In this document: one piece after another, positions 1 through 44,707 of the stretch
Numbering within the stretch: the stretch's first letter is position 1
Layout of the letters: each line of letters opens with the position of its first letter
From: Escherichia phage phiEco273
Direction: 5' to 3' (one strand)
Sequence record: PP786691.1
Length of the DNA: 44,707 nt
Program-made: the position numbers and the translations under genes
Notes under the pieces: model-generated
The model's database searches: none
Seen by the model: the letters and a program-made list of their open reading frames with translations, nothing else
Told to the model about the DNA's origin: nothing

Positions 1-860
1 CCGTGGTGGAAAAATAGCGTGGTCTTGCCGTGCTGCACCATTTTGTAGACGTCCGGGGACGTATCCACATCGACGCGCGGCTCGTTCTCGTACAGCGTGT
101 TGAACATCTCAGCAAGCCAAATCATGCCCGACTCATCATGATTCCCCTGGACGATTAGCAGTTTGACTTTGTGGTGTTTTTGCAGCGCCAGTTCGACGAC
201 GTTGCGCACCATGCGAATCATGTAGCGGACCAACTTCTGGTATCGGGTGTCGGCGTCCAGTATGTGACCACTTGCCGGAGTGACAGCATCGAGGCTATCA
301 AAGTGGGCCATATCACCGAGGATATTAATTACGGCAGTGCCTGCGTCCGGGGCGCGTGCGAAGGCTTCGACAAACCAGCGGTAGAACAGGTCTTCGGCGA
401 TCGCCATATCCCAGTCTTCGCCAGTCTCCTCGCCCCATGCCAACATGCCCAGGTGGAAGTCTGACACGGTGTACAGGTTGAGCAAGTCGAGCGCCTGGAT
501 CGGTACTGGCGGGGCGTTTACTGGCGCTGCCGGTGTGATTTCGCTGTTCATACCCTCGACAACAGCGCGCATAGCTTCGAGTTGGCGCTCTTTGTCCTGC
601 TCAGTGATGACCCACGACATGACCTCTTCGCCATTGCCGCGTACCAGGGCCGATACGCGCTTAACACCGAAGCCATCGGCAACGCGCTTGCGGATTACAG
701 CGTCATTGCCGTGTCCAATGCCTTTTTTCGACAGGCGGGCTTTCCGCATGTAGACGTTTCGGAGGGATAAACCGTACTTCTTAGAAATCTCTTTCGATGT
801 AGCGCCGGATTGTAATTCAGCAATCAATTGCTCGTCTGTGATTTTAGTTTGCGGGTGCAT
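1..860 (-). CDS. Calcineurin-like metallophosphoesterase with N-terminal HTH-like region; N-terminal part (ORF runs off the window start and continues in frame at 44425..44707)
   Basis: ATG at 860-858 preceded by AGGAAG; hand translation gives DFHLG, GDMAHFD, GNHD, FHHG motifs; no stop before coordinate 1. Absent from the ORF track because it is open at the window edge. Confidence 0.7.
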   Translation of the reverse strand, partial: MHPQTKITDEQLIAELQSGATSKEISKKYGLSLRNVYMRKARLSKKGIGHGNDAVIRKRVADGFGVKRVSALVRGNGEEVMSWVITEQDKERQLEAMRAVVEGMNSEITPAAPVNAPPVPIQALDLLNLYTVSDFHLGMLAWGEETGEDWDMAIAEDLFYRWFVEAFARAPDAGTAVINILGDMAHFDSLDAVTPASGHILDADTRYQKLVRYMIRMVRNVVELALQKHHKVKLLIVQGNHDESGMIWLAEMFNTLYENEPRVDVDTSPDVYKMVQHGKTTLFFHH

Positions 861-956
861 AATTACTTCCTGATTATGGGGCCAGGGACAATATATCACG
901 GGACTTATCGAGGCGGGCAATAAAAAGCCCGGAATTAACCGGGCTTGATTGTTTAC

Positions 957-1121
957 GTCACGGGGTCAGATTCTTCCTGTGGTGGCGGGCTAGGCAGCTT
1001 CGCGTCAAAGACGCCCGCATGGCTGATAGTGTCCGCGATGATAGCGCGTGCGCCAGGATCTTCGGTTTTAGCCAGCGCGGCGAGCGCGTCAGCGTTATGA
1101 TCAAGAATGCTTTTTAACATA
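957..1121 (-). CDS. small hypothetical protein (54 aa)
   Basis: ATG at 1121-1119 with GAGGT 9 nt upstream; fills the gap between endolysin and phosphoesterase genes; below the ORF-track size cutoff. Confidence 0.3.
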
Positions 1122-1136
1122 CTGTGTTACCTCGTA

Positions 1137-1628
1137 TTATGCTGCGTTACGCCCGATTTTCTCGGCAACGTCCCACTGCTTTCCATCAAACAACGCCTGT
1201 CTGCCGATTGCACGGCGCACCAGACCCTTAAGCACTTCGCCACCTTGCTTGCGGAACTGCGGCAGAGTATCCCGTACCTTCGCCCAGTCGCCCAACCGCA
1301 CCGCATCATCGAAATCGTTCGCGACGTCATCCGGCACGATCGGACCAGGACCGGCGTTGATTACCAGATCCACCAGCGCGTCGAATTGCGCCTGGTTAAT
1401 GCTCGGATGTGCGTATTTGTTCACCCAGTCCTCGGCATACGCCACATCGCGCTTGAGCAGTTCCAGCGCTTCCGCACGGGTAATGCTTCGTGGCGGGTTA
1501 GTTCCGGTGTGACCATAGCCCCAAGTATACAGGCCGCGGGCCTGCTCTTTCTTGGTCGCGAAATACGGCACTGGGCTGAAAGCCTCCCATGCTGCCGTAA
1601 ATCGTAGACCGTTATCACTGAATCGCAT
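1137..1628 (-). CDS. endolysin, phage lysozyme (GH24-like muramidase)
   Basis: 163-aa ORF; N-terminal E...YxxxxxxxTxGxGH-type lysozyme signature (EAFSPVPYF...GLYTWGYGHTG); sits immediately downstream of two small membrane proteins. Confidence 0.75.
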   Translation of the reverse strand: MRFSDNGLRFTAAWEAFSPVPYFATKKEQARGLYTWGYGHTGTNPPRSITRAEALELLKRDVAYAEDWVNKYAHPSINQAQFDALVDLVINAGPGPIVPDDVANDFDDAVRLGDWAKVRDTLPQFRKQGGEVLKGLVRRAIGRQALFDGKQWDVAEKIGRNAA

Positions 1629-1860
1629 GTTTTACCCCATTCAAAACAGCATTACGCAGGGTGCGCAATGCAAACAGCCAGATTAACGCGGTCCAGGTGG
1701 CATCAGAGACGTCCCCCGTTTGCAACAGCCCGACAATACAGGTCATTGCTGTTAGCAGATATAACACCCGACCGAAGAAGCCATCCTGAACGGACGGCGC
1801 ATACACGTTAAACAGGGACGAAGCCCCTATGATAACAAACAACAGGACGGTGATAATCAT
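1615..1860 (-). CDS. small membrane protein, holin/antiholin-like
   Basis: 81 aa, two hydrophobic segments, overlaps endolysin start; position in lysis cassette. Confidence 0.5.
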   Translation of the reverse strand: MIITVLLFVIIGASSLFNVYAPSVQDGFFGRVLYLLTAMTCIVGLLQTGDVSDATWTALIWLFALRTLRNAVLNGVKHAIQ

Positions 1861-2147
1861 TTTGCGCCCCCCGGAAGGTGTAGCGACGCAATTGTCTCCC
1901 GGATCCGGTCAGCGATTGGCATCCAGAAGATGGCAGTTACGAAGCCCAAACCGGCAACAGTGCGCTCACCGGACAAACCAGACCACTCGGCAATAGCTGG
2001 CGCACCAAATATGGCGCACAGGAAGCCAACTACGACATATAAAACGAAGTTCAACGGCCCTTTCGTTGCCTCGCCATGAATGCGTGCGCCGACGAAGCCA
2101 CCAGCAAGACACGCAAGGGCGAATAACCACTCGTTTAGCTTATCCAT
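1857..2147 (-). CDS. holin-like membrane protein
   Basis: 96 aa with 2-3 predicted TM segments, 4-nt overlap with downstream ORF. Confidence 0.5.
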   Translation of the reverse strand: MDKLNEWLFALACLAGGFVGARIHGEATKGPLNFVLYVVVGFLCAIFGAPAIAEWSGLSGERTVAGLGFVTAIFWMPIADRIRETIASLHLPGGAK

Positions 2148-2199
2148 AAAAAAGTCCCAGTAAGTTTTATCTCACTGGGACTATATCACGCTTGCATAA

Positions 2200-2487
2200 T
2201 TAATCGAAAATGGACCACTTGCCGACGCCTTTCCACTCCCACCCTTCCGAACGGACGGCCTCGAACATCCGGCCCCCTATCATATCGCGATACCACAGCC
2301 ACCACATGCGCAACCTGGTCGGGTGCTCCGTGATTCCACGGCGCTTGTATATCTGGAACGTCATGCGGGTAATGCTGGCGGCTTCCACGGCGGGCCAAAT
2401 CAGGAAGACCCACACCAACAGCGCCAGCACCATAGCAAAGAGTGTCGCGCACCCCAATCCAAACCAATATATCAAATCGTGTAGCAT
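2200..2487 (-). CDS. small membrane protein (hypothetical)
   Basis: 95 aa, two hydrophobic helices; preferred over the overlapping Arg-rich frame 2186..2530. Confidence 0.4.
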   Translation of the reverse strand: MLHDLIYWFGLGCATLFAMVLALLVWVFLIWPAVEAASITRMTFQIYKRRGITEHPTRLRMWWLWYRDMIGGRMFEAVRSEGWEWKGVGKWSIFD

Positions 2488-2608
2488 CGAATTGCCCCTT
2501 CCGGCTTGCCAATATGGCGCGCCCAGGCACGCGCCACGAAGTAATTGCGAAATACCCGACCGCCTATCTCAAAGCGGTTGTGCTGAAGCATATCCCGGAT
2601 CGTCGCAC

Positions 2609-3148
2609 TCATTTCTGAATGACCCCGCGCGGATCGGTAGACTTCATGCTGCCGTCGGGGTAGACCAGAATAACACCAATCCCAAATCGTTTGGCATCGT
2701 TGCCAGCCTGAATCATGGCGGCAGCTTGCGCCCTGGCGTTGTCGATATGCTCGCGCACCTTGCGCTCGTCGTATTTGGTATATGGGTGTTCCGTACGGGT
2801 GATCTCTTTCGCCACTACACCAGGGCGCTTAAGTTTATAGTTACGGCCTACGCGGGCGTAATTCACCAGGCCCGTGAGCAGAACGCCGCGTTGTGTTTTA
2901 CCACTGCGCAGCATAACGCCGTCCGTGCTCACGCGGAGCACCTCTAACAGCGACCCGTCACGCACATCACGCAGCACATCACCTACGCGGACGTCATGGT
3001 GCACTACCTGCAAATGCTCATGCAGGGTGGCTTTCTTGTACCAGAATACGCGGTCGCTGGCTTCATGGTACATGCGAACATAGTTCGGCAGCACTTCAAT
3101 CGGGGTAAGGAATCTCCCATTATGCTTATTGCGGAATATCATTTTCAT
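2609..3148 (-). CDS. hypothetical protein
   Basis: 179-aa ORF, protein-like composition, no recognised motif. Confidence 0.5.
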   Translation of the reverse strand: MKMIFRNKHNGRFLTPIEVLPNYVRMYHEASDRVFWYKKATLHEHLQVVHHDVRVGDVLRDVRDGSLLEVLRVSTDGVMLRSGKTQRGVLLTGLVNYARVGRNYKLKRPGVVAKEITRTEHPYTKYDERKVREHIDNARAQAAAMIQAGNDAKRFGIGVILVYPDGSMKSTDPRGVIQK

Positions 3149-3305
3149 TCTGTCAATCTCCTGTAGTTACGAACTAATGTGAGGCGCGAGATAGTGCGGC
3201 GAGTACCACACTTAGGGTGTGAAATAGTCACGTTGCCGTTTGCTTCTTCTGTCACGAAGTAAGTCAGTCGCGTGGCCTTACTCCGCCAGCGTTCAGGTTG
3301 CTTGT

Positions 3306-3575
3306 TCATTTGCTCAGTCTCCAGTGTTTTCCTGCCCGCTCAATGGCAGGCTTCCGGCGTAATGTAATACGAACACCCATTGGTTGCAAGGAAGTCCGCA
3401 CATAGAATCCGTGCTTCGCTGCGAACTGGCGCAAGTAGCGGGTCTGCGTTAATGGCTTCACATCGTCGCGATAACTCCAGAACACAGAATCGCCCTCATT
3501 CGCATTCTCAGCCCATATTCGTATGCAATGCAGGCTAATGCTCCAGGAAAGCCGTTTTGCGCGTCTGCGGTCCAT
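3306..3575 (-). CDS. hypothetical protein
   Basis: 89-aa ORF in operon context. Confidence 0.35.
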   Translation of the reverse strand: MDRRRAKRLSWSISLHCIRIWAENANEGDSVFWSYRDDVKPLTQTRYLRQFAAKHGFYVRTSLQPMGVRITLRRKPAIERAGKHWRLSK

Positions 3576-3584
3576 TTTACCCCC

Positions 3585-3890
3585 TTATTTCGCAAGCTGG
3601 GCGAATAGCTCGCGCTGGGCTTTAATCCGGGCGACGTTTGTCACTGCCGTCTCACCGATCCCGAAGCGATACGCCAGGCGCTCGCGGGCAAAAGCCATCG
3701 CATATTCGCAGATTGCCACGCGCAGCGGTTCCAGTTCGTCCAGGCTGGCAAACATATCATCGAACGCGTGCATGATTCCCTGCTGGGCCAGGATGACAAC
3801 CTGGCGCGCGTCGTCTGCGTTGCCGTCTGTGTGCTTCGCTTCATACAGCTTCGCCACCGCCATTGTGTAATTCCAGATTAAAGCTCTCAT
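3585..3890 (-). CDS. hypothetical protein
   Basis: 101-aa ORF; ATG at 3890 preceded by GAGGA and by a TATATTGGTTGCACACCAACA element also found upstream of the 38330 gene. Confidence 0.5.
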   Translation of the reverse strand: MRALIWNYTMAVAKLYEAKHTDGNADDARQVVILAQQGIMHAFDDMFASLDELEPLRVAICEYAMAFARERLAYRFGIGETAVTNVARIKAQRELFAQLAK

Positions 3891-4105
3891 CGTTCAGTCC
3901 TCATGTTGGTGTGCAACCAATATAGCAGGGTGCTGGGGCGGGCGCAACCAATATTAATCACGCGTATGAAAAGTTGATCGCTATCTGCTGAAACTGCAAA
4001 CTGCATTTTTCACCCACCATTCTGCAACTCGCATTGGTTGCCTAGTTCATCGACGACCGCAATTTACATCATGTTGCCGTGCATTATGCAATCCAGGATT
4101 TTATG

Positions 4106-4290
4106 CAGTCTCAGACGAGGGGGGTGCCAGACCCCCCGTCTAGTCTGAAAGACTGGGGTGCTGTCCCGCTGTCCCGCTCCTCGCCAGGCCGCGTCATCCG
4201 GGGCGGGACAAGGGTGCTGTCCCGCTTTGTCCCGCCCCTGGTCTGTCCCGCTTTTTGTCCCGCTTAGTTTATGCAGTTTTATTGCATAAC
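4106..4290. repeat. Repeat element copy 1: imperfect GC hairpin (GACGAGGGGGG...CCCCCCGTC) followed by 6 direct and 1 inverted copy of GTCCCGC and TTATGCA(G/A)T motifs
   Basis: Direct reading; about 85 percent identical over ~185 bp to 32399-32585 in the same orientation. Confidence 0.8.
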
Positions 4291-4369
4291 TATTCACTAT
4301 ATTTACACTACACGGCAACCAATACGACCGCCTAAAAGCACGCAAAATGGCAACCAATGCGCGCAAAAT

Positions 4370-6643: not shown

Positions 6644-6973
6644 TTACTTCGAAGTTTTGTTATTGCGTACCCAGGAGCGCACGGTGCTCTGGTTAATCCC
6701 TGTCAACTCCGCGATCATCGCCCATGACTTTCCCTCGGCGCGCAAACGGATAACCTGCTTTTTGTATTCTTCCATTTCCTCATTGTGCTTCTGCAGCTTG
6801 CTCGCCGCCGTGCCGTTCAGCAATTCCAGCCTGGCGCGTAATTCTTTTTCTACACTGCGCAGGCGCTCGACCTCAAACAGCACCGCCCCAACGGCATCGG
6901 TATAAGCCCATGACCGGCTTGTTTCACTGCTAACAGTCTTCGTTAACATTTCGATTGCGTCGTTTACATTCAT
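6644..6973 (-). CDS. HTH DNA-binding protein, candidate transcriptional regulator
   Basis: 109 aa, coiled-coil middle, C-terminal HTH-like segment (KSWAMIAELTGINQSTVRSWV); first gene of leftward operon, directly downstream of a palindromic site. Confidence 0.55.
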   Translation of the reverse strand: MNVNDAIEMLTKTVSSETSRSWAYTDAVGAVLFEVERLRSVEKELRARLELLNGTAASKLQKHNEEMEEYKKQVIRLRAEGKSWAMIAELTGINQSTVRSWVRNNKTSK

Positions 6974-7375: not shown

Positions 7376-7894
7376 ATGTTTGAACAAATCGTAAACCTGA
7401 TTACTCGCGGCGTAGTAGCACTGGAAACCATCGCTAAGCATTATGAAACCGTTGGCGCTGCCGTTGGTAAGCCGGAAGACAAGAAGCCGTCTAAGGCCAA
7501 AAAAGAAGTCGTAGAAGATGACGACGATGAAACCGAAGACGAAAAACCGGCGAAAACCAAAAAAGCACCGGCTAAAGGTAAGGCCAAAAAAGAAGTCGTA
7601 GAAGATGACGACGATGAAGAAGCCGAAGACGAAAAACCGGCGAAGGGTAAAAAAGCACCGGCGAAAGGCAAAGGCAAGAAAGATGCCGATCCGCTGGCAG
7701 AGATGCGCGACGAGATCAAACAGTATGCCGCTATTATCGCTGGTGGTGACGACGACGATGCCAACGACGAATTCGACGACCTGCTGGAATCGTTCGAGAT
7801 CAAATCAATCGCCAAGCTGGAAGATGACGACGTCGAAGACTTCCACAAAGATCTTAAAGAAATCGTCGAAACTTATTTCGAACTGGAAGATTAA
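7376..7894 (+). CDS. highly charged acidic/basic repeat protein (172 aa), function unknown
   Basis: First ORF of rightward operon; internal 87-bp tandem duplication (7495-7581 / 7582-7668) encoding KAKKEVVEDDDDExEDEKPAKxKKAPAKG; followed by hairpin terminator. Confidence 0.65.
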   Translation: MFEQIVNLITRGVVALETIAKHYETVGAAVGKPEDKKPSKAKKEVVEDDDDETEDEKPAKTKKAPAKGKAKKEVVEDDDDEEAEDEKPAKGKKAPAKGKGKKDADPLAEMRDEIKQYAAIIAGGDDDDANDEFDDLLESFEIKSIAKLEDDDVEDFHKDLKEIVETYFELED

Positions 7895-7900
7895 TATTAT

Positions 7901-7930
7901 CCGGCCCGCTAATCTGCGGGCCTATTTTAG
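7901..7930 (+). terminator. intrinsic terminator (GGCCCGC-loop-GCGGGCC + T-rich tail)
   Basis: Hairpin plus TATTTTA directly after stop of 7376..7894. Confidence 0.5.
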
Positions 7931-7941
7931 AGGACGAGACA

Positions 7942-8193
7942 ATGGCACGCTTCACGCTAATCGAGGCGGTGGATTCCCGCGACCAGCGCCCGTACTATTG
8001 GCTATTCGAACGCATAGGCAGCTTTCAATCCCGCGTTGCCGTAATAGATAAACGCCGTAACACACCCGCGCAAATTAAGCGCACCACCTTTACTAATCCC
8101 GACTTTTATATTTGGGCGGATTCCAATCTGGAGTATGTTCGCTTTGCAGTTGCATCCGAAGCAAGAACGATTGACCGCTGGGAGACGAAATAA
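7942..8193 (+). CDS. hypothetical protein
   Basis: 83-aa ORF. Confidence 0.4.
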   Translation: MARFTLIEAVDSRDQRPYYWLFERIGSFQSRVAVIDKRRNTPAQIKRTTFTNPDFYIWADSNLEYVRFAVASEARTIDRWETK

Positions 8194-8382
8194 ATGGCTA
8201 TATTCTTTGTTTTATTTCGTTGCCGTATTACCGGCGACGAGCAACCGGAAATTGTTATGAATCAAAACTGGAATTGCTGCTGGATGCAAGCCCGAGGACT
8301 GGCGGCTACCATGAACAATGCCGCTAAGCGGGCCAATGTTGAACATGACTATTACATTGCTCAATTTACACGGGTGGAATGA
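8194..8382 (+). CDS. small hypothetical protein
   Basis: 62-aa ORF, Cys/Trp-rich; weak. Confidence 0.25.
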   Translation: MAIFFVLFRCRITGDEQPEIVMNQNWNCCWMQARGLAATMNNAAKRANVEHDYYIAQFTRVE

Positions 8383-9812
8383 TGGCGATTAAACCAAAAC
8401 GTAAGACGCAATCCGGCAGCAATACGGAACACTCATTACTCGGGCCATCCGGTGCTAAAAAATGGATGGGTTGCCCCGCCGCCCTGGTGGTAGAAAAAGA
8501 TATCCCGAACGAATCCGGGCAAGCCGCGATTAACGGTACGAGTATGCACACCGTATCGGAGGTGGTGCTAAACCGCATTATCGCCGGTGAGAAGCTGATA
8601 ACCGCGAAGACGTATAAAGGGTGCTACGTCGAGAACGAAGGCAAGGGGCCAGTAAAGGCACACCCGAAAGCACCGAAAGGCGGCGTACTGGTCAACGACG
8701 ACATGGTGAAACAGTGCGACGCGTACATCGACCACTGGCGACCGCTCATCGAAGTGGCGGAGTTTATCCAGCTTGAGATGCGCGCCGATCTGACCCGCGT
8801 CCTTCACTCAGGCTACGAGATCGACGGCAACAGGATTAAAACGTTCGGTACTGCCGATATGGTCATGGTCATGAAAAAGACCGATGGAACGTACATGCTG
8901 ATTGTTGGCGACCTGAAGACCGGGCGGCATAAGGTCGAGGCGAAAGAGAACAAACAGCTTATGTTGTACGCGCTCGGCCTGCTGCGCAAGCTGCAAACTA
9001 TGTACGACATTACGACCGTGCGCCTGGTTATCTTCCAGCCGTATTGCGGTGGGGCGTCGGAGTGGGATATTTCGGTAGAAGCGCTGGAGATATTCGCGAA
9101 GTTTGCATCCAAGCGCGCTATTGCCGCACTGGAGGCGTATTCCCGAGGCAAGAAGGGGCTTACCCGTGCCGACTTCCGCCCCAGCGTTGATGCGTGCCAG
9201 TGGTGCCGATTTGCGGATCAGTGTAGTGCCCGCGCTAAGGCCGCAATCGACACGATGACACACCCAACGGCAACCGACGAAGACCTGGGCGACGACGTGA
9301 GTATTGCGACAGAGGAAGAATGCGCCAACCATGACCGCAATATGGCCCGCGAAGCCAGGAAGGCGGCACGACGTGCGAAGCGTGGTAAGAAAGAAGCGGC
9401 CCACGGTGCTATGAGCGCTGCGGAACTGCGCAAGGCTTATGAAGGCCTGGACGCAATGCGCCAGCACATCAAGGCTATCGAGTCCGCGGTATTCAAGGCG
9501 GTCATGGCGGGCGATGGCGAATCGCTGGGCCTCAAGATGGTTGCCGGTAAGGAAGGGATCCGTAAGTGGGCGGACGAGAGCGAAGTGATTGAAATCTTCA
9601 CGAAGGCCCGGATCAAGCGCGATGTGATGTACAAAGAAACATTGCTCAGCCCTACGGATGCCGAGAAGGTACTGAAGGACGAAAAACCGAAAGTGTGGGC
9701 GAAGCTGTGTGCTAAAATCACGCGCGCACCCGCCAAACCGGTGTTAGCCCCAATCGACGACCCTCGCCCTGCGTGGTCGGAAGCTACTGACGAGGACTTA
9801 AACAATGAATAA
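8379..9812 (+). CDS. Cas4-like PD-(D/E)XK exonuclease (DUF2800-like) with C-terminal Cys cluster
   Basis: 477 aa; N-terminal LLGPSGAKKWMGCPA motif, D/E-K core (IVGDLKTG), CQWCRFADQC cluster; adjacent to SSB-like gene as in known phage replication modules. Confidence 0.65.
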   Translation: MMAIKPKRKTQSGSNTEHSLLGPSGAKKWMGCPAALVVEKDIPNESGQAAINGTSMHTVSEVVLNRIIAGEKLITAKTYKGCYVENEGKGPVKAHPKAPKGGVLVNDDMVKQCDAYIDHWRPLIEVAEFIQLEMRADLTRVLHSGYEIDGNRIKTFGTADMVMVMKKTDGTYMLIVGDLKTGRHKVEAKENKQLMLYALGLLRKLQTMYDITTVRLVIFQPYCGGASEWDISVEALEIFAKFASKRAIAALEAYSRGKKGLTRADFRPSVDACQWCRFADQCSARAKAAIDTMTHPTATDEDLGDDVSIATEEECANHDRNMAREARKAARRAKRGKKEAAHGAMSAAELRKAYEGLDAMRQHIKAIESAVFKAVMAGDGESLGLKMVAGKEGIRKWADESEVIEIFTKARIKRDVMYKETLLSPTDAEKVLKDEKPKVWAKLCAKITRAPAKPVLAPIDDPRPAWSEATDEDLNNE

Positions 9813-10047
9813 AGTATTCGCAATCTTATTGATGTTTTTGCTCGGCGCGCTGGGATTTATCCTGCATTGCGTGCAAGGCGTGTTAATGGTGGCCTGGATG
9901 ATTCGCCATCCGACCCGCTGGCTGGATAACGGCTATAGCGAAGCCGCCGTCGATTGGGCAAAGAAGAACATCGACCGACCGCCATTAAGCTGGCTCTGGA
10001 GCGCCATTAACTACGTAACCAGAAATCTTTTTAATGAAAATGCTTGA
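9805..10047 (+). CDS. small membrane protein
   Basis: 80 aa with two hydrophobic helices. Confidence 0.4.
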   Translation: MNKVFAILLMFLLGALGFILHCVQGVLMVAWMIRHPTRWLDNGYSEAAVDWAKKNIDRPPLSWLWSAINYVTRNLFNENA

Positions 10048-10137
10048 CCGCGTAGGCGCAACCAAGTAGATTAGCAACCAAGCCGAACGGGGTGGCTTCC
10101 AATAACCCCGATACATGTGAAAATGAGGAATTGGAAA

Positions 10138-10920
10138 ATGGCTAAAGTCAACCTGAAAAATGTGCGCGTATGTTTCCTTAAAATTTGGGAACGTGATACC
10201 CCTAAACAGGATGGACAAAAACCGGCATACCGCGCCGTGATTCTTCTTGATAAAGAAGATCCGCAGGTGGACAAAGTGGAAGCGGCAGCGCGCGCAGTGC
10301 TCACCGACAAGCTGAAATCCGAGAAGAATGCCGATAAGTGGATGGACCGCCACTACGCCCAGGATTCTAAGGAATGCGCAGTACGCGACGGTGACGAGCG
10401 CGACGAAGTAACCGAAGAATTCGAAGGCATGTTGTACATCAACGCCAAATCGTTCAAACAGCCAAACATTCAAACGTCACTCGGCGAGAAGCAGACCGAA
10501 CAGGGTCTGACCGTAGAAGGCGACGAAATCGAAGGCCAGGAGATCTACTCCGGTTGTTATTGCAATGTGTCCCTCGATATCTGGGCGTGGAACAATACCA
10601 ACGGCAAGGGACTCGGGGCTGGTTTGCTGGGGCTGCGATTCCGTGACGACGGCGAAGCCTTCGGCGGTGGCGGATCTTCTTGCTCAGACGAGGACCTGGG
10701 CGACGATGACGAAGATGAAAGCCCGCGCAAGTCCAAAAAGTCAAAACGTCGTGATGACGATGACGAAGATGACAAGCCGCGCAAGTCCAAAAAGTCCAAG
10801 CGCCGCGATGACGACGACGATGAGGAAGATGAAAAACCTCGCAAACGTCGTAAGCCACGCGATGACGAAGATGAGGACGACGACGAAGACGAAGCGCCAC
10901 GCAAACGTCGCCGCCGTTAA
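10138..10920 (+). CDS. ssDNA-binding/annealing protein, T7 gp2.5-like (DUF2815-like) with alternating acidic/basic C-terminal repeats
   Basis: ATG at 10138 with GAGGA RBS; N-terminus MAKVNLKNVRVCFLKIWER resembles gp2.5/DUF2815; C-terminal repeats DDDDEDDKPRKSKKSKRR x3-4. Confidence 0.55.
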   Translation: MAKVNLKNVRVCFLKIWERDTPKQDGQKPAYRAVILLDKEDPQVDKVEAAARAVLTDKLKSEKNADKWMDRHYAQDSKECAVRDGDERDEVTEEFEGMLYINAKSFKQPNIQTSLGEKQTEQGLTVEGDEIEGQEIYSGCYCNVSLDIWAWNNTNGKGLGAGLLGLRFRDDGEAFGGGGSSCSDEDLGDDDEDESPRKSKKSKRRDDDDEDDKPRKSKKSKRRDDDDDEEDEKPRKRRKPRDDEDEDDDEDEAPRKRRRR

Positions 10921-10938
10921 GGGCAAAGCCCACTATTC

Positions 10939-10965
10939 AAGCCCGCTTAATGCGGGCTTTTTAAT
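10939..10965 (+). terminator. intrinsic terminator (AGCCCGC-TTAAT-GCGGGCT + TTTTT)
   Basis: Hairpin and T-run directly after SSB stop. Confidence 0.55.
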
Positions 10966-10978
10966 AGGACAATGAAAA

Positions 10979-11148
10979 ATGCGCATTAAAGCCAGCGAAG
11001 TAAAAGTCGGAATGCGGGTATGGTCCAAGCTACTGGGGGAGTATTTCACAGTTGCCGAGATCCGCAACAACGGCGAGGAGATAGCCCTTTCCGACGGTAT
11101 ATTCTCCATGATCGGCAGCGCTGACGCCGTAGTGAGGATTAAGCAATG
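10979..11148 (+). CDS. small hypothetical protein (56 aa)
   Basis: ATG 10979; stop overlaps DNA polymerase ATG (ATGA); below ORF-track cutoff. Confidence 0.35.
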
Positions 11149-13437
11149 AAAGACTTCGAACGCCTTTTTCTCGATACCGAGACATTTAGCGGGGTGGACC
11201 TGAAGAAAGTGGGCGCATACGCCTACGCGGAACACCCAACTACCGAGATTATGATTTGCACATACGCCATCGACGAGGGCCGCGTACAGACATGGGATTG
11301 CACCGAATCCCCCACAATGCCGCGTGAACTGCGCAAGGCGCTCCGCCGGGTATCCCGCAAGAAAGCAAAAATCGTGATGGCTAACGGCCTCCTGTTTGAC
11401 CGCCTGGTTATTCGCGAGAAGTGGGGCATTGACCTGCCGGTAGGCCAGATCGAAGATACCATGATTATGGCCTTTCGCCACGCGCTGCCGGGTAGCCTCG
11501 ATATGCAGTGCCAGGTGTTGGGCGTTGACGCAGAGCACGCGAAGGATAAGGCTGGCAAGGCGCTAATCAAACGATTCTGTAAGCCAACCCCTAAGACCTA
11601 CAAAATCCGTCGCTATACGCGCGAGACGCACCCCGAGGAGTGGGCTAAATTCCTGCGCTACGCCGCGCTGGATATTGTTGCTATGCGTGAAGTCTACTGG
11701 CGCATACCAGACTGGGGCAACACGCCGAAGGAAGATGAAATCCTGCTTATTGACCAGATGATTAACGACCGCGGCTTCTATGTGGACGTTGACCTGGCTA
11801 ACGCCGCGATCAAAGCGGTGCAGGCGCATAAGGAAGAATTGAAGGAAGAAGCATGGGAGCGCTTCGGCGGTAAGCTGACCGGCAATGACTTCCTGCCAGC
11901 GCTGCGCGACCTCGCGCCTGCGTTCACAATACACAACGCGCAGAAATCCACGCTTAACGAACTGCTGGAAGACCAGGACTTCCCCGACGAGGGCAAAGTG
12001 CTTATCGAGATGCGCCTCGGCGCGTCATCAACGGCATCGACTAAGTACAATCCGCTCGTAAATGGGCTGTCTGCCGATGGTCGCCGCCGTGGTTGTCTTC
12101 AGTATGGTGGGGCAAAGCGCACGCTACGCTGGGCCGGAAAGGGCTTCCAGCCGCAAAACCTGGCACGCGGCGAGTATAGCGACGACCACGAAGGGAAGAT
12201 TAAGCGCCGTGATGGCGAGAGCGACGTCGCGTTTTGGGTGCGGTCGCACATGCTCACCAACGGCATCAACTCCCTGTTACGCGGGACCGCACACTGGGCG
12301 TATGACATATCGAAGCTAACGGCCTCGACTGTTCGCGGGTGCATTATTCCGGCGAAGGGTAAGAAGTTTGTCGTAGCGGACTACTCCAACGTGGAAGGGC
12401 GTGGCCTCGCCTGGATCGCTGGCGAGAAAACCGCGCTAATGGTGTTTAGGGCGGGTCGCGATATCTATTGTGAAACTGCCGGTAAGATGTTTGGCCTCGA
12501 CCCGGAATACATTAAAGCCAACCGCAAAGACTTACGCCAGATCGGTAAGGCGTGCGAATTGGGCCTGGGCTATGGTGGTGGCGTGGCGGCGTTCTTGCAG
12601 TTCGCTAAAAACCTGGGCCTCGACCTTTACGCGATGGCTGAAGTGATGAAGGGCACATTCCCCGATCACATTTGGGCGGCGGCGAAACGGGGTTATGAGT
12701 ACGCCCGGATCAACGAAGCGAAGCGCCCGCCGAAGCCTGGCAAGAAGGACGAGCGCCCAACTTATATACTGCCGAAAAACGTATGGTTGACGTGTGATGC
12801 GATCAAACGTATGTGGCGCGAGTCGCACCCGAAGACGGTAGCATTTTGGGCTGAACTGGAAGACGCGGTGCTCTGCGCGATCCGCAATCCGGGCAAAGCG
12901 TACTGGGCTGGCGCGAACGTTCGCCCGGATGGCAAGAAAGCGCTCAAGATAGTCCGCACGAAGGCGAAGCACGACCCCACCTTCGACGAGGAGCGCGACG
13001 ACCCGAACGCCGCGGGGTGGTGGTTGAAAATCGAGTTGCCGTCGGGGCGCATCATGAGTTATCCGGGCATTGCGCTGTCAGTGACTACCGAGATCGACGA
13101 AGATACCGGCAAGAAGCGCACCAGCACCCGCATTAAATATCAGGGCGAGAATCAGACGACCCGCCAGTGGGGCTTCCAGTACACCTACGGCGGCAAACTC
13201 ACGGAAAACATCATACAGGCGCTGTGTCGCGATATCCTCGCATGGTCCATGCCGGGCGTTGAATCTGCGGGATATGAGATCGTACTGTCCGTACACGATG
13301 AACTGATAACCGAAGTGCCGGATACTGACGACTACACAACCGAGGAGTTGTGCGCGCTGATGTGCGACCTGCCTGTTTGGGCGAAAGGCTTCCCGCTTGC
13401 CGCGGAAGGCGACATTATGTACAGGTACAGAAAATAA
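11146..13437 (+). CDS. DNA polymerase, family A (PolA-like) with 3'-5' exonuclease domain
   Basis: 763 aa; N-terminal exonuclease motif LFLDTETFSG; long polymerase-like C-terminal region ending ...SVHDELITEVP (family A motif C-like). Confidence 0.8.
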   Translation: MKDFERLFLDTETFSGVDLKKVGAYAYAEHPTTEIMICTYAIDEGRVQTWDCTESPTMPRELRKALRRVSRKKAKIVMANGLLFDRLVIREKWGIDLPVGQIEDTMIMAFRHALPGSLDMQCQVLGVDAEHAKDKAGKALIKRFCKPTPKTYKIRRYTRETHPEEWAKFLRYAALDIVAMREVYWRIPDWGNTPKEDEILLIDQMINDRGFYVDVDLANAAIKAVQAHKEELKEEAWERFGGKLTGNDFLPALRDLAPAFTIHNAQKSTLNELLEDQDFPDEGKVLIEMRLGASSTASTKYNPLVNGLSADGRRRGCLQYGGAKRTLRWAGKGFQPQNLARGEYSDDHEGKIKRRDGESDVAFWVRSHMLTNGINSLLRGTAHWAYDISKLTASTVRGCIIPAKGKKFVVADYSNVEGRGLAWIAGEKTALMVFRAGRDIYCETAGKMFGLDPEYIKANRKDLRQIGKACELGLGYGGGVAAFLQFAKNLGLDLYAMAEVMKGTFPDHIWAAAKRGYEYARINEAKRPPKPGKKDERPTYILPKNVWLTCDAIKRMWRESHPKTVAFWAELEDAVLCAIRNPGKAYWAGANVRPDGKKALKIVRTKAKHDPTFDEERDDPNAAGWWLKIELPSGRIMSYPGIALSVTTEIDEDTGKKRTSTRIKYQGENQTTRQWGFQYTYGGKLTENIIQALCRDILAWSMPGVESAGYEIVLSVHDELITEVPDTDDYTTEELCALMCDLPVWAKGFPLAAEGDIMYRYRK

Positions 13438-13715
13438 TGACACCAGAAGGCAAGATCCAAAGTTACCTTATGAAGCGGGTAAAAGCCGTCGGCGGATTCT
13501 GCCGTAAAGTGGCATGGGAGGGGCGCGCAGGAGCGCCCGACCTGATAATCATCATCAACGGCAAGATAGTTTTCGTCGAAGTGAAGCGCCCCGGCGGCAA
13601 ACCGAAGCCGCACCAGGTACGAGAACATGAGCGAATGGCCCGCCGCGGTGCGGACGTTCGCGTCATCGACAACATAGCCGACTGTGATTTATTGGTTGCT
13701 GAATTGGTCGCGTAG
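13437..13715 (+). CDS. VRR-NUC domain nuclease
   Basis: ATG overlaps polymerase stop (TAATG); sequence ...GAPDLIIIINGKIVFVEVKRPGGKPKPHQ matches the VRR-NUC D...E.K core. Confidence 0.7.
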   Translation: MTPEGKIQSYLMKRVKAVGGFCRKVAWEGRAGAPDLIIIINGKIVFVEVKRPGGKPKPHQVREHERMARRGADVRVIDNIADCDLLVAELVA

Positions 13716-13755
13716 CAGTATAGTTGGCAGGTTAGCCCTATCGAGGATTTTAGAA

Positions 13756-13929
13756 ATGGTTGAAGAAAAACGTTGTAGTAATTGCGGTTGCGTCAAGCCG
13801 CTATCCCAGTTCCACAAATACACCGGCAAAACTGCGCGCAGCCCCGATGGGTATCGTGCCGAGTGCAAATCGTGCCGCAATAAGAAAGAGCGTGAACGGC
13901 AGCGCCGCTACCGCGCAGCGCAAAAATAA
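13756..13929 (+). CDS. small zinc-ribbon protein (CxxC...CxxC)
   Basis: 57 aa from ATG 13756 with GAGGA RBS; CSNCGC ... CKSCRNK; basic C-terminus. Confidence 0.45.
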   Translation: MVEEKRCSNCGCVKPLSQFHKYTGKTARSPDGYRAECKSCRNKKERERQRRYRAAQK

Positions 13930-13972
13930 TTAATACGGCGGGCTTGTCCCGCCATTTTTGGGAGACATGACG

Positions 13973-14191
13973 ATGAAAGATCATTACCGACTCACCAAGC
14001 TGGGCGAATGTAAACCGGGCGATCGCGTATGGTTTATCGCGGGCATGAATGACCCGCTGCCGTTGACGGTATGCTGGCAAAAATTTAAGAGCTTCCGGGC
14101 GACGGGTGTGCACATCGGGCACCGCACCAACTACGACGCCACAAAAAGGAACTGGAACAGTGAAACCGAAGTCTGGAAAAAGGCGGAATAG
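13973..14191 (+). CDS. hypothetical protein
   Basis: 72 aa from ATG 13973 (GGGAGA RBS). Confidence 0.4.
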   Translation: MKDHYRLTKLGECKPGDRVWFIAGMNDPLPLTVCWQKFKSFRATGVHIGHRTNYDATKRNWNSETEVWKKAE

Positions 14192-14195
14192 AGAT

Positions 14196-15620
14196 ATGGC
14201 ACGTTTCCGACGTCGCGAATATCAGAAGTTGATAACCGCGTTCATCCTCAAGCATAAGCGCTGCAATATTTGGGCGACAATGGGGTCGGGTAAAACCGGC
14301 GCGACTATGTGGGCGCTGAATAAAATGTTCCAGACTGGTATCCTGTCCAACCAGGAGGACCGCGTACTGGTGCTGGCCCCGCTGCGCGTTGCGTCCGGTA
14401 CATGGCCCCCGGAGCAGGAGAAATGGCGCTTCCCCGCCCTGCTGGTAGTAGACGGCACCGGGTCAGAGAAGGACCGCATCGCTGCGCTTGAGAGCGACGC
14501 TAACGTGGTTTGTGTTAACTATGATGTGGTTGAGTGGCTGGTTGACTATTGCGGCGACGAGTGGCCCTTTACGGTCGTTGTTGCCGATGAATCCACTAAG
14601 CTGAAAGGCTACCGCAGCAAGCAGGGCAGTAAGCGCGCCCGCGCCCTGGCGGCGATCGCACATAAGCGCGTCAAGCGCTGGATTAACCTTACAGGCACAC
14701 CCGCGCCAAACGGATTGAAAGACCTGTGGGGTCAGACGTGGTTTGTCGACGGTGGCGAACGCCTCGGCAGTAGCTATAAGGCATTTACGGACCGCTGGTT
14801 TATTAGCAAGCCTGTTAAGCCTGGCAGCTTCACGATGCAACACGCCCCGCTCAAGAACTCCGAGAAAGAAATACAACAACGCCTGTCTGACGTATCGCTC
14901 ACCGTTGACGCGGCTGAATACTTCGGATGTGATAAACCAATCTATACGCCGGTTGTTGTGGACCTGCCGAGGAAAGCCCGCAAGATTTATGACCAGTTCG
15001 AAGCGGAGCTATTTGCCGAACTGGAAAGCGGAACGGTGGAGGCGGCGAACGCTGCGTCGAAGACTATTAAGTGCCTTCAGCTTGCTTCCGGGGCCGTGTA
15101 TAAGGTCGACGAAGACGGCGAACGGACCGACGAATGGGTGAAAATTCACGACGCTAAGCTGGACGCGCTGGAAAGTATCGTGGAGGAGTTGAACGGCGCA
15201 CCGTTGCTCGTCGCATACCAGTACAAGCATGACTTGGCACGTCTTAAGAAGAAATTCCCACACGGCGTCGCTATGGGTAAGGGAAAGCAAGGCAATAAGG
15301 ATATGGAAGCGTGGAACAGGGGCGAGATCCCCATCATGTTCGCACACCCGGCATCGGCGGGTCACGGCCTTAACTTGCAGGATGGCGGACACCACCTTGC
15401 TATCTTCTCAGACACCTGGAACTTTGAGCACTTTTCGCAGATCGTGGAGCGTATCGGGCCGGTTCGCCAGATACAAGCCGGACACCCTCGTCCGGTATTC
15501 GTCTACATTATCCAGGCGCGCGGCACACTTGACGAACTGGTCGCCGAGCGTCGCGACAGTAAGCGGGATATTCAGGACGATTTGATGGAATACATGAAAG
15601 CTAAAAAGGCGCGCAAATGA
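14196..15620 (+). CDS. SNF2/DEAD-like superfamily 2 helicase
   Basis: ATG 14196; Walker A GSGKTG, motif II VVADESTKLK, helicase C-terminal domain. Confidence 0.75.
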   Translation: MARFRRREYQKLITAFILKHKRCNIWATMGSGKTGATMWALNKMFQTGILSNQEDRVLVLAPLRVASGTWPPEQEKWRFPALLVVDGTGSEKDRIAALESDANVVCVNYDVVEWLVDYCGDEWPFTVVVADESTKLKGYRSKQGSKRARALAAIAHKRVKRWINLTGTPAPNGLKDLWGQTWFVDGGERLGSSYKAFTDRWFISKPVKPGSFTMQHAPLKNSEKEIQQRLSDVSLTVDAAEYFGCDKPIYTPVVVDLPRKARKIYDQFEAELFAELESGTVEAANAASKTIKCLQLASGAVYKVDEDGERTDEWVKIHDAKLDALESIVEELNGAPLLVAYQYKHDLARLKKKFPHGVAMGKGKQGNKDMEAWNRGEIPIMFAHPASAGHGLNLQDGGHHLAIFSDTWNFEHFSQIVERIGPVRQIQAGHPRPVFVYIIQARGTLDELVAERRDSKRDIQDDLMEYMKAKKARK

Positions 15621-16312
15621 TTATCTGGTCATTATTTGACGGCAGCGGCTTGATGATTGAGCGTGCTGCCGAGATGGGGCATAAGTGTTATTGCTTCAAC
15701 TACTCCGAAGCCGATCATGGGTCTTACCTGGACTACCGGATTTATGGTCGCGGGATCCGCTATCGTAATGAGTTTATCGATCTGGACTTTGTAGACCGCG
15801 CGATGAATGGCGATTTCGGCGCGCCGGATATCATCTACGCATTCCCGCCGTGTACGGATCTGGCGGTGAGCGGTGCGCCAGCTTTCCCGCGCAAGCGTGC
15901 AAAAGACCCAGCCTTTCAGCTTAAGGCGGTGCGCACCGCGAAGATCGCCGCTTACCTGGGTGACTTCTTCGAAGTGCCATATATGATTGAGAATCCGCGC
16001 AGCGTGCTATCAACTCAATGGCGTAAGCCGGACCACTCGTTTGATCCGTGGGAGTATGGCGGATATCTGCCGGAGGATGACGTGCACCCGTTATTCCCGG
16101 AATACATCAACGCCCGCGATTCATATCCGAAGCTGACCTGCTTATGGACCGGCAACGGCTTCCGTATGCCAGAGAAGAAACCTGTTTTCGTTGAAAAAGG
16201 GTACTCGAAGCAGTATAGTCGCCTCGGAGGCAAATCTGCCCGCACCAAATTAATCAGGTCGCTCACCCCGCGCGGCTTCGCGATAGCGGTTAACGAGGAA
16301 AATTTAAAATGA
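15617..16312 (+). CDS. minimal C5-cytosine methyltransferase-like protein
   Basis: 231 aa; motif I-like LFDGSG, motif IV-like FPPCTDLAVSG (catalytic Cys), motif VI-like IENPRS; no obvious target-recognition domain; ATGA coupling with upstream helicase. Confidence 0.45.
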   Translation: MIIWSLFDGSGLMIERAAEMGHKCYCFNYSEADHGSYLDYRIYGRGIRYRNEFIDLDFVDRAMNGDFGAPDIIYAFPPCTDLAVSGAPAFPRKRAKDPAFQLKAVRTAKIAAYLGDFFEVPYMIENPRSVLSTQWRKPDHSFDPWEYGGYLPEDDVHPLFPEYINARDSYPKLTCLWTGNGFRMPEKKPVFVEKGYSKQYSRLGGKSARTKLIRSLTPRGFAIAVNEENLK

Positions 16313-16632
16313 ATACTGCATTCGACGCCATCGACTTTTCAGTGGCAATGACCAATCAGCTTTTTTCCTACGACAGCAAGACCGGCGTTATCCGCCTTAA
16401 GTCAACCGGCTGCAAGATTGGCAACCTCAATACTGCCGATGGCGGTACTCGTATCGAATGCAACGGCAAGACGCTGTCTGGCGCGCGCGTGGCGTGGATT
16501 ATCGCGACCGGCAATACAATCCCCCCAGGCTTCGCCGTTGTGTGCCGTCAGCGCACGCCAGGCCATTACGGCAACCGGATCAGCAATCTTTATTTGGTGG
16601 ACGTTGCGCGCGACCCTAACTTTTATGCGTAA
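16309..16632 (+). CDS. HNH-like (degenerate) endonuclease-fold protein
   Basis: 107 aa; pattern SYDSKTGVIRLK...ARVAWIIATG...GNRISNLYLV resembles HNH_3 homing-endonuclease layout with catalytic His apparently replaced. Confidence 0.35.
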   Translation: MNTAFDAIDFSVAMTNQLFSYDSKTGVIRLKSTGCKIGNLNTADGGTRIECNGKTLSGARVAWIIATGNTIPPGFAVVCRQRTPGHYGNRISNLYLVDVARDPNFYA

Positions 16633-16666
16633 ATTGGTTGCATAATCGTATTGGTTGCATTATATT
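16633..16666 (+). promoter_or_regulatory. Promoter-like element with two direct ATTGGTTGCAT repeats: -35 TTGCAT (16638-16643), 17-bp spacer, -10 TATATT (16661-16666)
   Basis: Direct reading; same architecture recurs at 38270-38310, 18292-18325, 22216-22248 and on the minus strand at ~3895-3960. Confidence 0.5.
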
Positions 16667-42161: not shown

Positions 42162-43547
42162 TTAGTAGAAGTCTACAGTTGGAACAACGGCGATCGGACG
42201 AATCACAGGGAACAAGTGCGCAATAGGGTAGCCAGCCGCGTCATTCATGTGGTCCACACCGGCAGTTTTATCCGGCTCGCCTTTCTTCAGGTCGTACACC
42301 TGCTGTTCCAGACATTTCGCTAGTGTAGGGCATTTATCCAGGTTGACAAAATACTGGCGCACGCCCTTCGAGTTGCACATCATCGTATTCATCGCGATAA
42401 GTCTGTCTTTCACAGGCGGGTTAACGCTGTCGTATTCCACCTCGAAGCCCGCGTCTTCCAGTTGCGCGATATCAGACGAGGATGCGTTAACAGTCTTACG
42501 AGACTTGCCACTGCTATCCGGGTAAACGACAACCTTACCGGCAGCGCAATGATCTGGGTAGCGCTCCTCGATCGCCTCAATCATAGCCGGTGTGTCAAAC
42601 AGGTCCACAAATTCATCCACCGCGTGAATCTCGTCGCGGAACTCCTTGTTCTCGGTGGTACGCTGCCGTCTTACATACACGACCGCCGCCATTTTCGTGA
42701 CGTTAAAGTCCATACCGATAATCAGCGTGTCTTCCGGCTGCACTTCTTCGGTGCTTGCGTTCTCCTCACGGTTAAACATCTTGTATACCGCGCCCGACGT
42801 AAGGTTAACAAACATACCGTTCAGGTACGCATCGATCAGGTTAGCCGGGTACTGACTGCGAAGCGTGTCGATAAAGTCTGCCGGTAAATGGTGGTTGTCG
42901 GTGGTCTTCGCCCGGATCAGGCGCTTTTGGCTATCCTTCTCCACCTCGAAGATTTGATACATCGCCCGGAAGCCTTCCGGCGTGGACACGATGACAAACT
43001 GGCGGACAAGACCTGCACGCAGACGACCGAGCAATTTGTGATAAGCCGCCATTGCGACGTCTTGCTTCGTGGTGTCGAACTCGTCGGCAACAATCCACGC
43101 GGCGTTAACCCCGATTAGGCGGGTGTAGTTCTCCATTGACTCGCAGATAACGCGGGTCCATTTTCCTTTCACCAGAACGCTATAGATCTTGTCCTGCTTG
43201 TTGAACTTCCACCGGAAGCCCGCCTCGTCGAAAGCCTTCTCCAGTTCCGGATACATGATTTTAACCAGGAGTGGGATAGTCGGCTCGGTCACGATGCCGT
43301 CATGCCCCGGGTTCAGTGTCAGAAGCTGGATGACCTTTCTCGCAGCGACCCACGACTTTCCACCACCGAAGCCGGAACACAGGCCGAGGATTTTAGTCTT
43401 CGTGTCGCGCAGTAGTTCCACCTGGTGCGGAAGGCAATCAGGCTGGTACAGGCGGACGGCCTGCGCAACGCGCGTCGGGCGTGGTGGTCGGTTGCGCTTT
43501 GCGATCGCGCGCTCCAGTGCGCGGTGTTCTGCCGCATAGTTACGCAT
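42162..43547 (-). CDS. terminase large subunit
   Basis: 461 aa; Walker A-like GLCSGFGGGKS, Walker B-like AWIVADEFD, C-terminal nuclease-like region. Confidence 0.8.
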   Translation of the reverse strand: MRNYAAEHRALERAIAKRNRPPRPTRVAQAVRLYQPDCLPHQVELLRDTKTKILGLCSGFGGGKSWVAARKVIQLLTLNPGHDGIVTEPTIPLLVKIMYPELEKAFDEAGFRWKFNKQDKIYSVLVKGKWTRVICESMENYTRLIGVNAAWIVADEFDTTKQDVAMAAYHKLLGRLRAGLVRQFVIVSTPEGFRAMYQIFEVEKDSQKRLIRAKTTDNHHLPADFIDTLRSQYPANLIDAYLNGMFVNLTSGAVYKMFNREENASTEEVQPEDTLIIGMDFNVTKMAAVVYVRRQRTTENKEFRDEIHAVDEFVDLFDTPAMIEAIEERYPDHCAAGKVVVYPDSSGKSRKTVNASSSDIAQLEDAGFEVEYDSVNPPVKDRLIAMNTMMCNSKGVRQYFVNLDKCPTLAKCLEQQVYDLKKGEPDKTAGVDHMNDAAGYPIAHLFPVIRPIAVVPTVDFY

Positions 43548-44098
43548 TATTCGCCCTGGCCTTTTCCGGTAGGTTCGACAACGACGTCGCCGTTATCATC
43601 TTCGTCGTCATCCAGTGGGATATCGTCGCGTACGCCGTGGTTTGCTTTAAGCAGGAACGTAGCGAAGCCCGCCGCGATGGTCACGCCGCCAGCTTCCATC
43701 AGGAAAGTTTTCTGCAACTCCATTGCGTCAGCCATCGCCTCGGCGAACTCCTCATGTGCACGCGCCCAGCGGTACAGGCAGGCAACGCCCACACCGATTT
43801 CCGCGGCAAATCTGCCGAAGGTTGGCATTTTGTTGCGGGGAATTACTTGCGCAGCGCCTTTATCGGAGTAATTGACCTGCCAGGCGTCGGCGTCGGCAAA
43901 ATAGCGACGAAGCTGGTCGCAGTAAACAGATCGGTAGTCAGTAGGGCGTCCACATTTGCCGCCTTTACGGCGCTTTCCGTACTCGATTTCAGGTCCGAGA
44001 TTGGTATGCTCAGTTTGCTCGCCTGGTTTACGGCGCGGGGTTACTGCTACTCGTCCGTCCAGTTTGGCGCGTCGGCCCTTAACTTTGATTTCTGCCAT
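43547..44098 (-). CDS. terminase small subunit
   Basis: ORF 43547..44197; probable start ATG 44098; basic N-terminal DNA-binding-like region (GRPTDYRSVYCDQL...), acidic C-terminus; overlaps terL start. Confidence 0.55.
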   Translation of the reverse strand: MAEIKVKGRRAKLDGRVAVTPRRKPGEQTEHTNLGPEIEYGKRRKGGKCGRPTDYRSVYCDQLRRYFADADAWQVNYSDKGAAQVIPRNKMPTFGRFAAEIGVGVACLYRWARAHEEFAEAMADAMELQKTFLMEAGGVTIAAGFATFLLKANHGVRDDIPLDDDEDDNGDVVVEPTGKGQGE

Positions 44099-44168
44099 GA
44101 TATATGCCCTTTTGTTCATATGCGCCGACCATCGGCAACATAGGAGACGGCCCTGCCATCTAATGGGG

Positions 44169-44215: not shown

Positions 44216-44428
44216 CTAAACGGCGCGACCGTAGTATCGGGTTAACATGCTTTCTACTTCGCGTATTGCGCCTTCTGTGTAGCGTATTTGCGATAGTATC
44301 TCGATCCGTTCGCTGATAGACATGCCTACCGCCGCTGCCGTTCGTTCGAATCGGCGCAAGCCTTCGAGTTGTTTGCGTAATTCCTTCAGGCGTGTGGCCT
44401 GCGTGCTCATGAATACTTGTCTAATCAT
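44216..44428 (-). CDS. hypothetical protein (70 aa)
   Basis: ATG overlaps upstream stop (ATGA). Confidence 0.4.
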   Translation of the reverse strand: MIRQVFMSTQATRLKELRKQLEGLRRFERTAAAVGMSISERIEILSQIRYTEGAIREVESMLTRYYGRAV

Positions 44429-44707
44429 TTCAACATTTCCGGGCTAATGGTTAAGCGCGCTACTTCGCCGTAGTTGGCGCTATAGGTGATGACGTTTGCG
44501 CTGCGACCGGACATCCAACCACCACGACTGGCGTAGGCGTCTTTCGCTGCGAGCGTCCGGTGCTGTTCAACAATCATGTTGCGGGATTCTACAATCTTCT
44601 GGTGGTGCAAGTGGCCTACGTGCGCGTAGCTGTACTCACTGGCCCCGAAAGCCTGTCTGAATTTAGAAATCATGACGGTTTCGATAGCGTCAAAGCGCGC
44701 TTTATGC
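44425..44707 (-). CDS. Calcineurin-like metallophosphoesterase, C-terminal part (continuation of 1..860 across the window junction)
   Basis: Reading frame stays open to the last base of the window and is in phase with the ORF leaving coordinate 1 (...FFHHG|HKARFDAIETVMISKF...); contains GHLHH motif. Confidence 0.7.
   Translation of the reverse strand, partial: HKARFDAIETVMISKFRQAFGASEYSYAHVGHLHHQKIVESRNMIVEQHRTLAAKDAYASRGGWMSGRSANVITYSANYGEVARLTISPEMLK

Follow-up and report, generated by a model that had tools for sequence, protein, structure and literature searches.

A gene divided between the ends of the Escherichia phage phiEco273 sequence and the completeness of this Dhillonvirus genome

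The 44,707-nucleotide stretch of DNA analysed here (Escherichia phage phiEco273, PP786691.1; hereafter the window) is very probably the complete genome of a virulent, headful-packaged E. coli siphophage of the genus Dhillonvirus (the HK578/SO-1/JL1-like phages), a circle that has been cut at an arbitrary base. The partial open reading frames at its two ends belong together as one real gene, and the join between them is real DNA. The product predicted for this gene carries an N-terminal HTH fused to a metallophosphoesterase (MPE) with all five catalytic motifs.

A gene across the ends of the window

When the ends of the window were joined and translated, the minus-strand frame was seen to be open from an ATG at 860-858 to coordinate 1, on to 44707 and as far as a TGA at 44425-44427, with neither a stop codon nor a frame break at the join. 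The initial annotation had described an ORF that starts at 860, is still open at coordinate 1 and continues at 44707, and its coordinates, peptides and split codon proved to be correct. It had also proposed a single protein of ~381 aa; the protein is indeed single but has 380 aa, the higher figure including the stop codon, and the joined ORF amounts to 1143 nt, that is 380 codons and the TGA. Phosphoesterase motifs had been attributed to both halves, and they are present in both. The 5' part of the gene (1..860, minus strand) comprises codons 1-286 and the first two bases of codon 287 and encodes the HTH (~aa 9-45), a beta-hairpin and helix (~aa 64-105) and MPE motifs I-IV, while the 3' part (44425..44707, minus strand) comprises the third base of codon 287, codons 288-380 and the TGA and carries motif V (G318-H319-x-H321, in the sequence GHLHH). 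In the split codon, the cc at bases 2 and 1 supplies GG and the c at base 44707 the final G, which gives GGG and Gly287, and the peptide over the join reads ...KTTLFFHHG/HKARFDAIETV...GHLHHQ...SPEMLK, where the slash marks the ends of the window. An AGGAAG Shine-Dalgarno sequence is found 5 nt before the ATG at 860, and this start agrees with the 380-aa form of the protein in phage PNS1 and in most homologues. In phage NHEP3 the phosphoesterase is annotated as 393 aa, from a GTG start 13 codons upstream (window 861-899, minus strand); this longer start is probably a mis-call.

No direct overlap of 8 nt or more was found between the ends of the window, and the join is thus free of duplication. 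Genes are dense in this genome, and of randomly chosen positions and frames 15% stay open over 94 codons; the continuity of an open frame is by itself weak evidence, and the case therefore rests on homology. The best homologue, P0001 from phage vB_EcoS_PNS1, is a single 380-aa protein with 97% identity over 100% of the query, and homologues of 376-380 aa are present by the thousand in Escherichia and Salmonella phages. PHROG 704 matches residues 5-380 of the joined protein (E = 3e-160). The PHROG match, the homologue search and the alignment all place the two halves in the same protein family rather than in unrelated ones. The junction itself falls inside a block, FFHHG/HKARFD (VYKMVQHGKTTLFFHHG/HK), that is invariant in 17 aligned homologues, with no residue missing or duplicated.

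The same continuity was found at the level of the DNA. Bases 3837 and 3836 of the NHEP3 genome, which are adjacent, align by blastn to window positions 44707 and 1, so that the last and first bases of the window are neighbours in NHEP3, and NHEP3 CDS 2938-4119 gives one tblastn HSP over the artificially closed junction with 98.5% amino-acid identity. An exact 48-mer over the junction was found within the 45,206-bp IMG/VR contig IMGVR_UViG_2706796374_000001, where it forms part of an uninterrupted identical run of ~290 nt over the junction (alignment columns 97-395). A 3-kb query made up of the last 1500 and first 1500 bases of the window was searched against phage records and matched 156 of them (142 named Escherichia phage and 5 'Dhillonvirus'), with 99 holding the junction in a single internal place. 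The opening point of the window had been described as arbitrary, and this agrees both with its position in metal-binding motif IV of a conserved gene and with the GenBank relatives that match the junction, for which many different opening coordinates, on either strand, have been used.

Several of the database records have peculiarities of their own. PQ843332 (Escherichia phage P-GXEC-L2P5; 88,607 bp) contains the junction region twice and has the appearance of a dimer assembled head to tail. The record OQ221563 bears the name 'Acinetobacter phage NJ01' but is 91.6% identical to these coliphages, which makes the Acinetobacter host label doubtful; the homologue P0080 is labelled Acinetobacter baumannii. 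At the protein level, phrog_20703 matches only the N-terminal half of the joined protein (residues 5-199) and phrog_20762 only its C-terminal part (residues 264-378), and several viral database entries are fragments of the phosphoesterase of 98-260 aa. These half-length PHROGs and fragment entries suggest that deposited genomes often have the gene in pieces, as a result of internal linearisation or of frameshifts.

Identity and completeness of the genome

The window is collinear with the 44,039-bp NHEP3 genome across the junction, window 23662-44707 aligning to NHEP3 24875-3837 and window 1-2656 to NHEP3 3836-1181. By blastn, 40,292 of the 44,707 bases (~90%) are aligned at ~93% identity, and the ~10% that differs by remaining unaligned lies mostly in the tail-fibre/immunity region (19516-23661) and in 2657-3305. 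Phage records with 90-95% identity number 125-147 for the two halves of the window and include HK578, JL1, SSL-2009a, SO-1 and TheodorHerzl, and 81-94% of each half is covered. Nucleotide identity across the genome to accepted members of Dhillonvirus is at least the 70% that defines the genus. Genomes of the genus measure 43-46 kb (PMC8594841), a range that includes the 44,707 bp of the window, and the conserved synteny of the modules is present as well.

This synteny is apparent from a tblastn search in which 59 of the 65 NHEP3 proteins were found in the circularised window, in the same order and from all modules. The packaging and head set is represented by terS, terL, portal, head morphogenesis, scaffold and major head proteins and adaptors, the tail set by tail proteins, tape measure and tip proteins, the lysis set by holins, endolysin and spanin, and the replication set by DNA polymerase, two helicases, a Gp2.5-like SSB, an exonuclease and methyltransferases. 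Among the six proteins for which tblastn gave no match, two come from small hypothetical ORFs and four from the tail-tip/immunity region, in which the window has other genes. A leftward block runs from ~7100 to 1 and, wrapping around the ends, from 44707 to 19521, and contains the helicase-primase, small ORFs, lysis genes, phosphoesterase, terS/terL, head and tail genes and tail fibre; the rightward replication block occupies 7376-19493. Collinearity with NHEP3 across the junction, the gene set and a length within 43-46 kb all support the earlier proposal that the window is a whole replicon. In the August-2025 phage collection no record reached 95% identity in the stretches tested, and the window probably represents a distinct species-level lineage, which is a routine finding. 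Neither Rfam nor tRNA scans gave a match anywhere in the window.

Two other accounts of these data must be weighed against that of a complete phage genome. The in-frame continuity could be coincidental, or the window an incomplete fragment with ends that are not adjacent, and the frequency with which frames are open by chance lends this some initial plausibility; it is, however, already refuted by the base-for-base adjacency of the ends in NHEP3, by the full-length homologues with their common invariant junction block and by the exact junction 48-mer in an independent contig, and the gene set is complete, so that its probability is negligible. Alternatively, the window could represent a plasmid-prophage in circular form or a temperate element after excision, kept in its host as a covalently closed replicon. 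Many homologues do come from records labelled as Salmonella or E. coli assemblies, on contigs of ~41-45 kb, but contigs of this size also fit the whole genome of a phage that is either a contaminant or in the carrier state. Megablast of the phosphoesterase gene gave no match in 5,426 complete E. coli genomes and none in 72,556 plasmids, which argues against a prophage or a plasmid, and annotation transfer revealed no integrase, partition or repressor module among the proteins common to the window and NHEP3. As the genus is moreover described as strictly lytic (PMC13348001), a replicon maintained in the host is highly improbable, and the complete genome of a virulent phage is the reading that we retain.

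Packaging and the meaning of circularity

'Circular' describes the assembly, or map, and probably the intracellular form of the genome. The DNA in the virion is most likely a linear, circularly permuted molecule with terminal redundancy and a length slightly above 44,707 bp. The closed phage genome of 44,707 bp proposed in the initial annotation thus holds as a circular map and as a unit length, but not as a covalently closed circle of virion DNA. That the assembly closes without unique ends is evident from the adjacency of the ends in NHEP3 and in the IMG/VR contig and from the gene that is restored on joining them. Continuity and completeness at the level of the genome, genus membership and the motifs and fold of the phosphoesterase are graded here as shown, while headful packaging is something that we infer for this isolate, its end structure being deduced from relatives and from the terminase families.

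Five SO-1-like (Dhillonvirus) phages gave circular assemblies for which PhageTerm predicted headful packaging, and their genomes were on this basis opened at the small terminase (PMC9022532). In the case of UDS3lw, PhageTerm pointed to a pac site and headful packaging (PMC13348001), and the BASEL authors took circular contigs as a sign of complete assembly (PMC8594841). From this genus literature of circularising assemblies and headful predictions, the virion DNA would be expected to be linear, redundant and permuted. The small terminase subunit TerS of the window (190 aa; 43547..44119, minus strand; phrog_3064 'terminase', E = 8e-73) is 99.5% identical to NHEP3 TerS and weakly similar, below Pfam gathering scores, to P22 GP3_package and Sf6_terminase. 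P22 and Sf6 are headful phages. The large subunit TerL (461 aa; 42162..43547, minus strand) belongs to PHROG 10250/2 and matches Pfam Terminase_6N with 54.3 bits and Terminase_6C with 30.6 bits, both of which exceed the gathering score. The GenBank records of HK578 and TheodorHerzl open near the start of terS (at ~window 44119 and 44098, respectively), and this is a convention and not a physical end.

A circular assembly alone cannot separate direct terminal repeats from headful redundancy, and the genome might therefore be complete and yet have fixed virion ends, either short exact direct terminal repeats or cos, with the circle arising from a collapsed repeat. This is unlikely in view of the PhageTerm indications of headful/pac packaging for members of the genus (PMC9022532, PMC13348001), the Terminase_6N/6C type of TerL and the weakly P22/Sf6-like TerS, and the records of relatives, which start at many positions or, where opened conventionally, near terS. 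Under headful packaging, the preferred reading, DNA would be packaged from concatemers starting at a pac site, and each virion would receive a linear, terminally redundant molecule that slightly exceeds one genome and has permuted ends. The reads obtained from a permuted population of this kind would assemble into a circle, which the assembler or depositor would then linearise at an arbitrary base. With the opening base inside codon 287, the parts of the gene would come to lie at opposite ends of the window and would rejoin exactly.

A circular assembly is the standard and already known outcome for a headful-packaging phage of a heavily sampled genus, and the present sequence adds one more ~93%-identical member to that coliphage genus. 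For annotation, the sequence is a finished genome. The partial ORFs at its two ends call for annotation as the single gene that they are, or else the sequence should be re-opened at terS, as is the convention for Dhillonvirus; coordinate 1 must not be counted as a physical end of the DNA.

The HTH-metallophosphoesterase

The N-terminal HTH of the predicted protein is LuxR/GerE/sigma-r4-like and is joined by a beta-hairpin/helix linker to a binuclear MPE domain. Conservation was assessed in an alignment of 122 sequences in which P0001 stands proxy for the joined protein and to which the homologues are 32-81% identical. D134, H136, G182, D183, T194, N240, H241, H286, G318 and H321 are invariant in the 122 homologues, and G239 and H319 are conserved in at least 90% of them. 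The five metal-binding motifs of the superfamily (DxH, GD, GNH(D/E), H and GHxH) are found as I D134-x-H136, II G182-D183, III G239-N240-H241, IV H285/H286 and V G318-H319-x-H321, and T194 is the sole invariant residue that lies outside them. As motifs I-IV and motif V are in different parts of the divided gene, neither half would be a functional enzyme alone.

An AF2 model generated with the 122-sequence alignment (pLDDT 91.6) contains the HTH at residues 9-45, a disordered linker, the beta-hairpin and helix at 64-105 and, at 121-380, an MPE domain with the alpha/beta sandwich fold of the superfamily, which is closest to the nucleases PolD-DP1, SbcD and Mre11. A model generated with a 16-sequence alignment (75-97% identical) had a pLDDT of 54 and was discarded. 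Matches to Pfam Metallophos and Metallophos_2 were below the gathering score (22.2 vs 27 bits and 20.0 vs 21.5, respectively), the match to the GerE HTH in Pfam was weak, and NCBIfam returned nothing meaningful for the phosphoesterase. The family is a divergent branch, and its membership of the superfamily rests on the motifs and the fold. The family, PHROG 704, is very large, with ~4,700 clusters when the cut-off is 50% identity. Among the 1.84 billion representative proteins searched there were 4,674 matching clusters, and most of the best 150 match over most of the length; the N-terminal HTH types recognised by Pfam among family members are sigma-70 r4, GerE, Fis and LysR.

The activity would most likely be that of a DNA-tethered Mn2+/Fe-dependent phosphodiesterase or nuclease; action on a nucleic-acid substrate is a possibility that we rate somewhat short of probable. 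No experimental work on this phosphoesterase was found in the literature. When the family profile was compared with PDB sequences, SbcD/Mre11 were not significant (E = 0.45-0.95), and single-sequence phmmer against PDB sequences gave just spurious matches to designed repeat proteins. No SbcC/Rad50-like partner gene was found among the large ORFs of the window or the transferred annotations. In the light of the profile result and the lack of an SbcC/Rad50 gene, the label 'DNA repair exonuclease', taken as a statement of Mre11/SbcD orthology, is unsupported. The protein could instead be a sequence-directed DNA-processing or regulatory enzyme, recruited for example to the GCGGGACA box clusters described below, rather than a generic 'DNA repair exonuclease'; we consider this a rather unlikely proposal, in which enzyme and boxes are linked solely by their co-occurrence in the genome. 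The HTH-metallophosphoesterase family is widespread.

Gene neighbourhood

A consensus scan identified a terminator-like GC hairpin with a T run at 925..946 on the minus strand (8-bp stem with 6 GC pairs, then TTTTATTG), located after the lysis cassette and ahead of the phosphoesterase gene. Two terminator-like sites were present in the scanned region vs 1.3 expected from shuffles, a number that is not statistically distinctive. The phosphoesterase is the first ORF downstream of the hairpin after the lysis cassette, and the terminase genes come next on the same strand. Between the phosphoesterase gene and terS there is a 70-aa ORF (44216..44428, minus strand) that matches phrog_20931 over its full length (E = 5e-48) and is 95.7% identical to NHEP3 CDS 4116-4328; its ATG overlaps the phosphoesterase stop codon (ATGA). 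A Dhillonvirus protein, Ksap1, has been described as an activator of KpAvs2 (PMC11564622). The 70-aa ORF is probably not Ksap1, as its positions 30, 39, 47, 50 and 60 differ from K, L, L, T and F.

Other features of the genome

A dispersed direct repeat of ~165 bp is present at 4133-4297 and 32424-32588, the copies being 71-82% identical and 28,291 bp apart. The octamer TGTCCCGC/GCGGGACA occurs 18 times in the genome vs 2 expected, and 16 of the 18 copies lie within box clusters at 4162-4263 and 32452-32709, adjoined by (C/T)TGCATAA motifs and a G6/C6 hairpin. The region downstream of the helicase-primase gene contains one cluster; the other lies where the tail chaperone and the tape-measure gene are separated by a non-coding gap of unusual length. 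At syntenic sites in NHEP3 both clusters are kept, overlain by annotated small 'hypothetical' ORFs. The clusters have no Rfam match and are candidate operator/promoter arrays or iterons.

The host-range/immunity region at 19516-23661 is unlike that of NHEP3. It contains, on the minus strand, the gene for a 911-aa tail fibre (19521-22256) that ends in an intramolecular-chaperone domain of the Peptidase_S74 type and, in the opposite orientation, a 76-aa ORF and a 314-aa DUF6453 membrane protein (22278-23443; PHROG 1265 'moron/host takeover'). The genes of this region stand in place of the outer-membrane and membrane-associated ORFs of NHEP3. Elsewhere, in-frame tandem coding repeats rich in Asp, Glu and Lys are found at 7499-7678, where 2 x 90 nt form part of a 172-aa protein (phrog_3127), and at 10702-10869, where 3 x 54 nt lie in the part of the gene for the Gp2.5-like single-strand-binding/annealing protein that encodes the C-terminal tail. 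The product of 6644-6973 (minus strand), which has 109 aa and an HTH_23/HTH_28/Sigma70_r4_2 domain, is annotated as a 'transposase' in NHEP3. It is encoded at the head of the leftward block, beside the divergent intergenic region (~7.1-7.4 kb), and is more likely to be a phage transcription regulator than a transposase.

Comparison with known systems

One distant homologue of the phosphoesterase (35% identical, on one contig) is encoded at the end of an early region, directly upstream of an antiterminator-Q gene. We take this position to resemble that of ninI in lambda, and the lambda NinI protein (lambda-PP, a PPP-family Ser/Thr phosphatase) is likewise an enzyme of the MPE superfamily. With respect to packaging, P22, Sf6 and SPP1 have circularly permuted, terminally redundant genomes that assemble as circles, and the window resembles these headful phages in its circular assembly and arbitrary opening, although the likeness of its TerS to those of P22 and Sf6 is weak and falls below Pfam gathering scores. 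The closest correspondence is with the members of Dhillonvirus (HK578, JL1, SSL-2009a, NHEP3, TheodorHerzl/Bas14 and the Sodalis phage SO-1), which have the gene order and size class of the window and in which the arrangement over the junction, phosphoesterase - orf70 - terS - terL, is the same.
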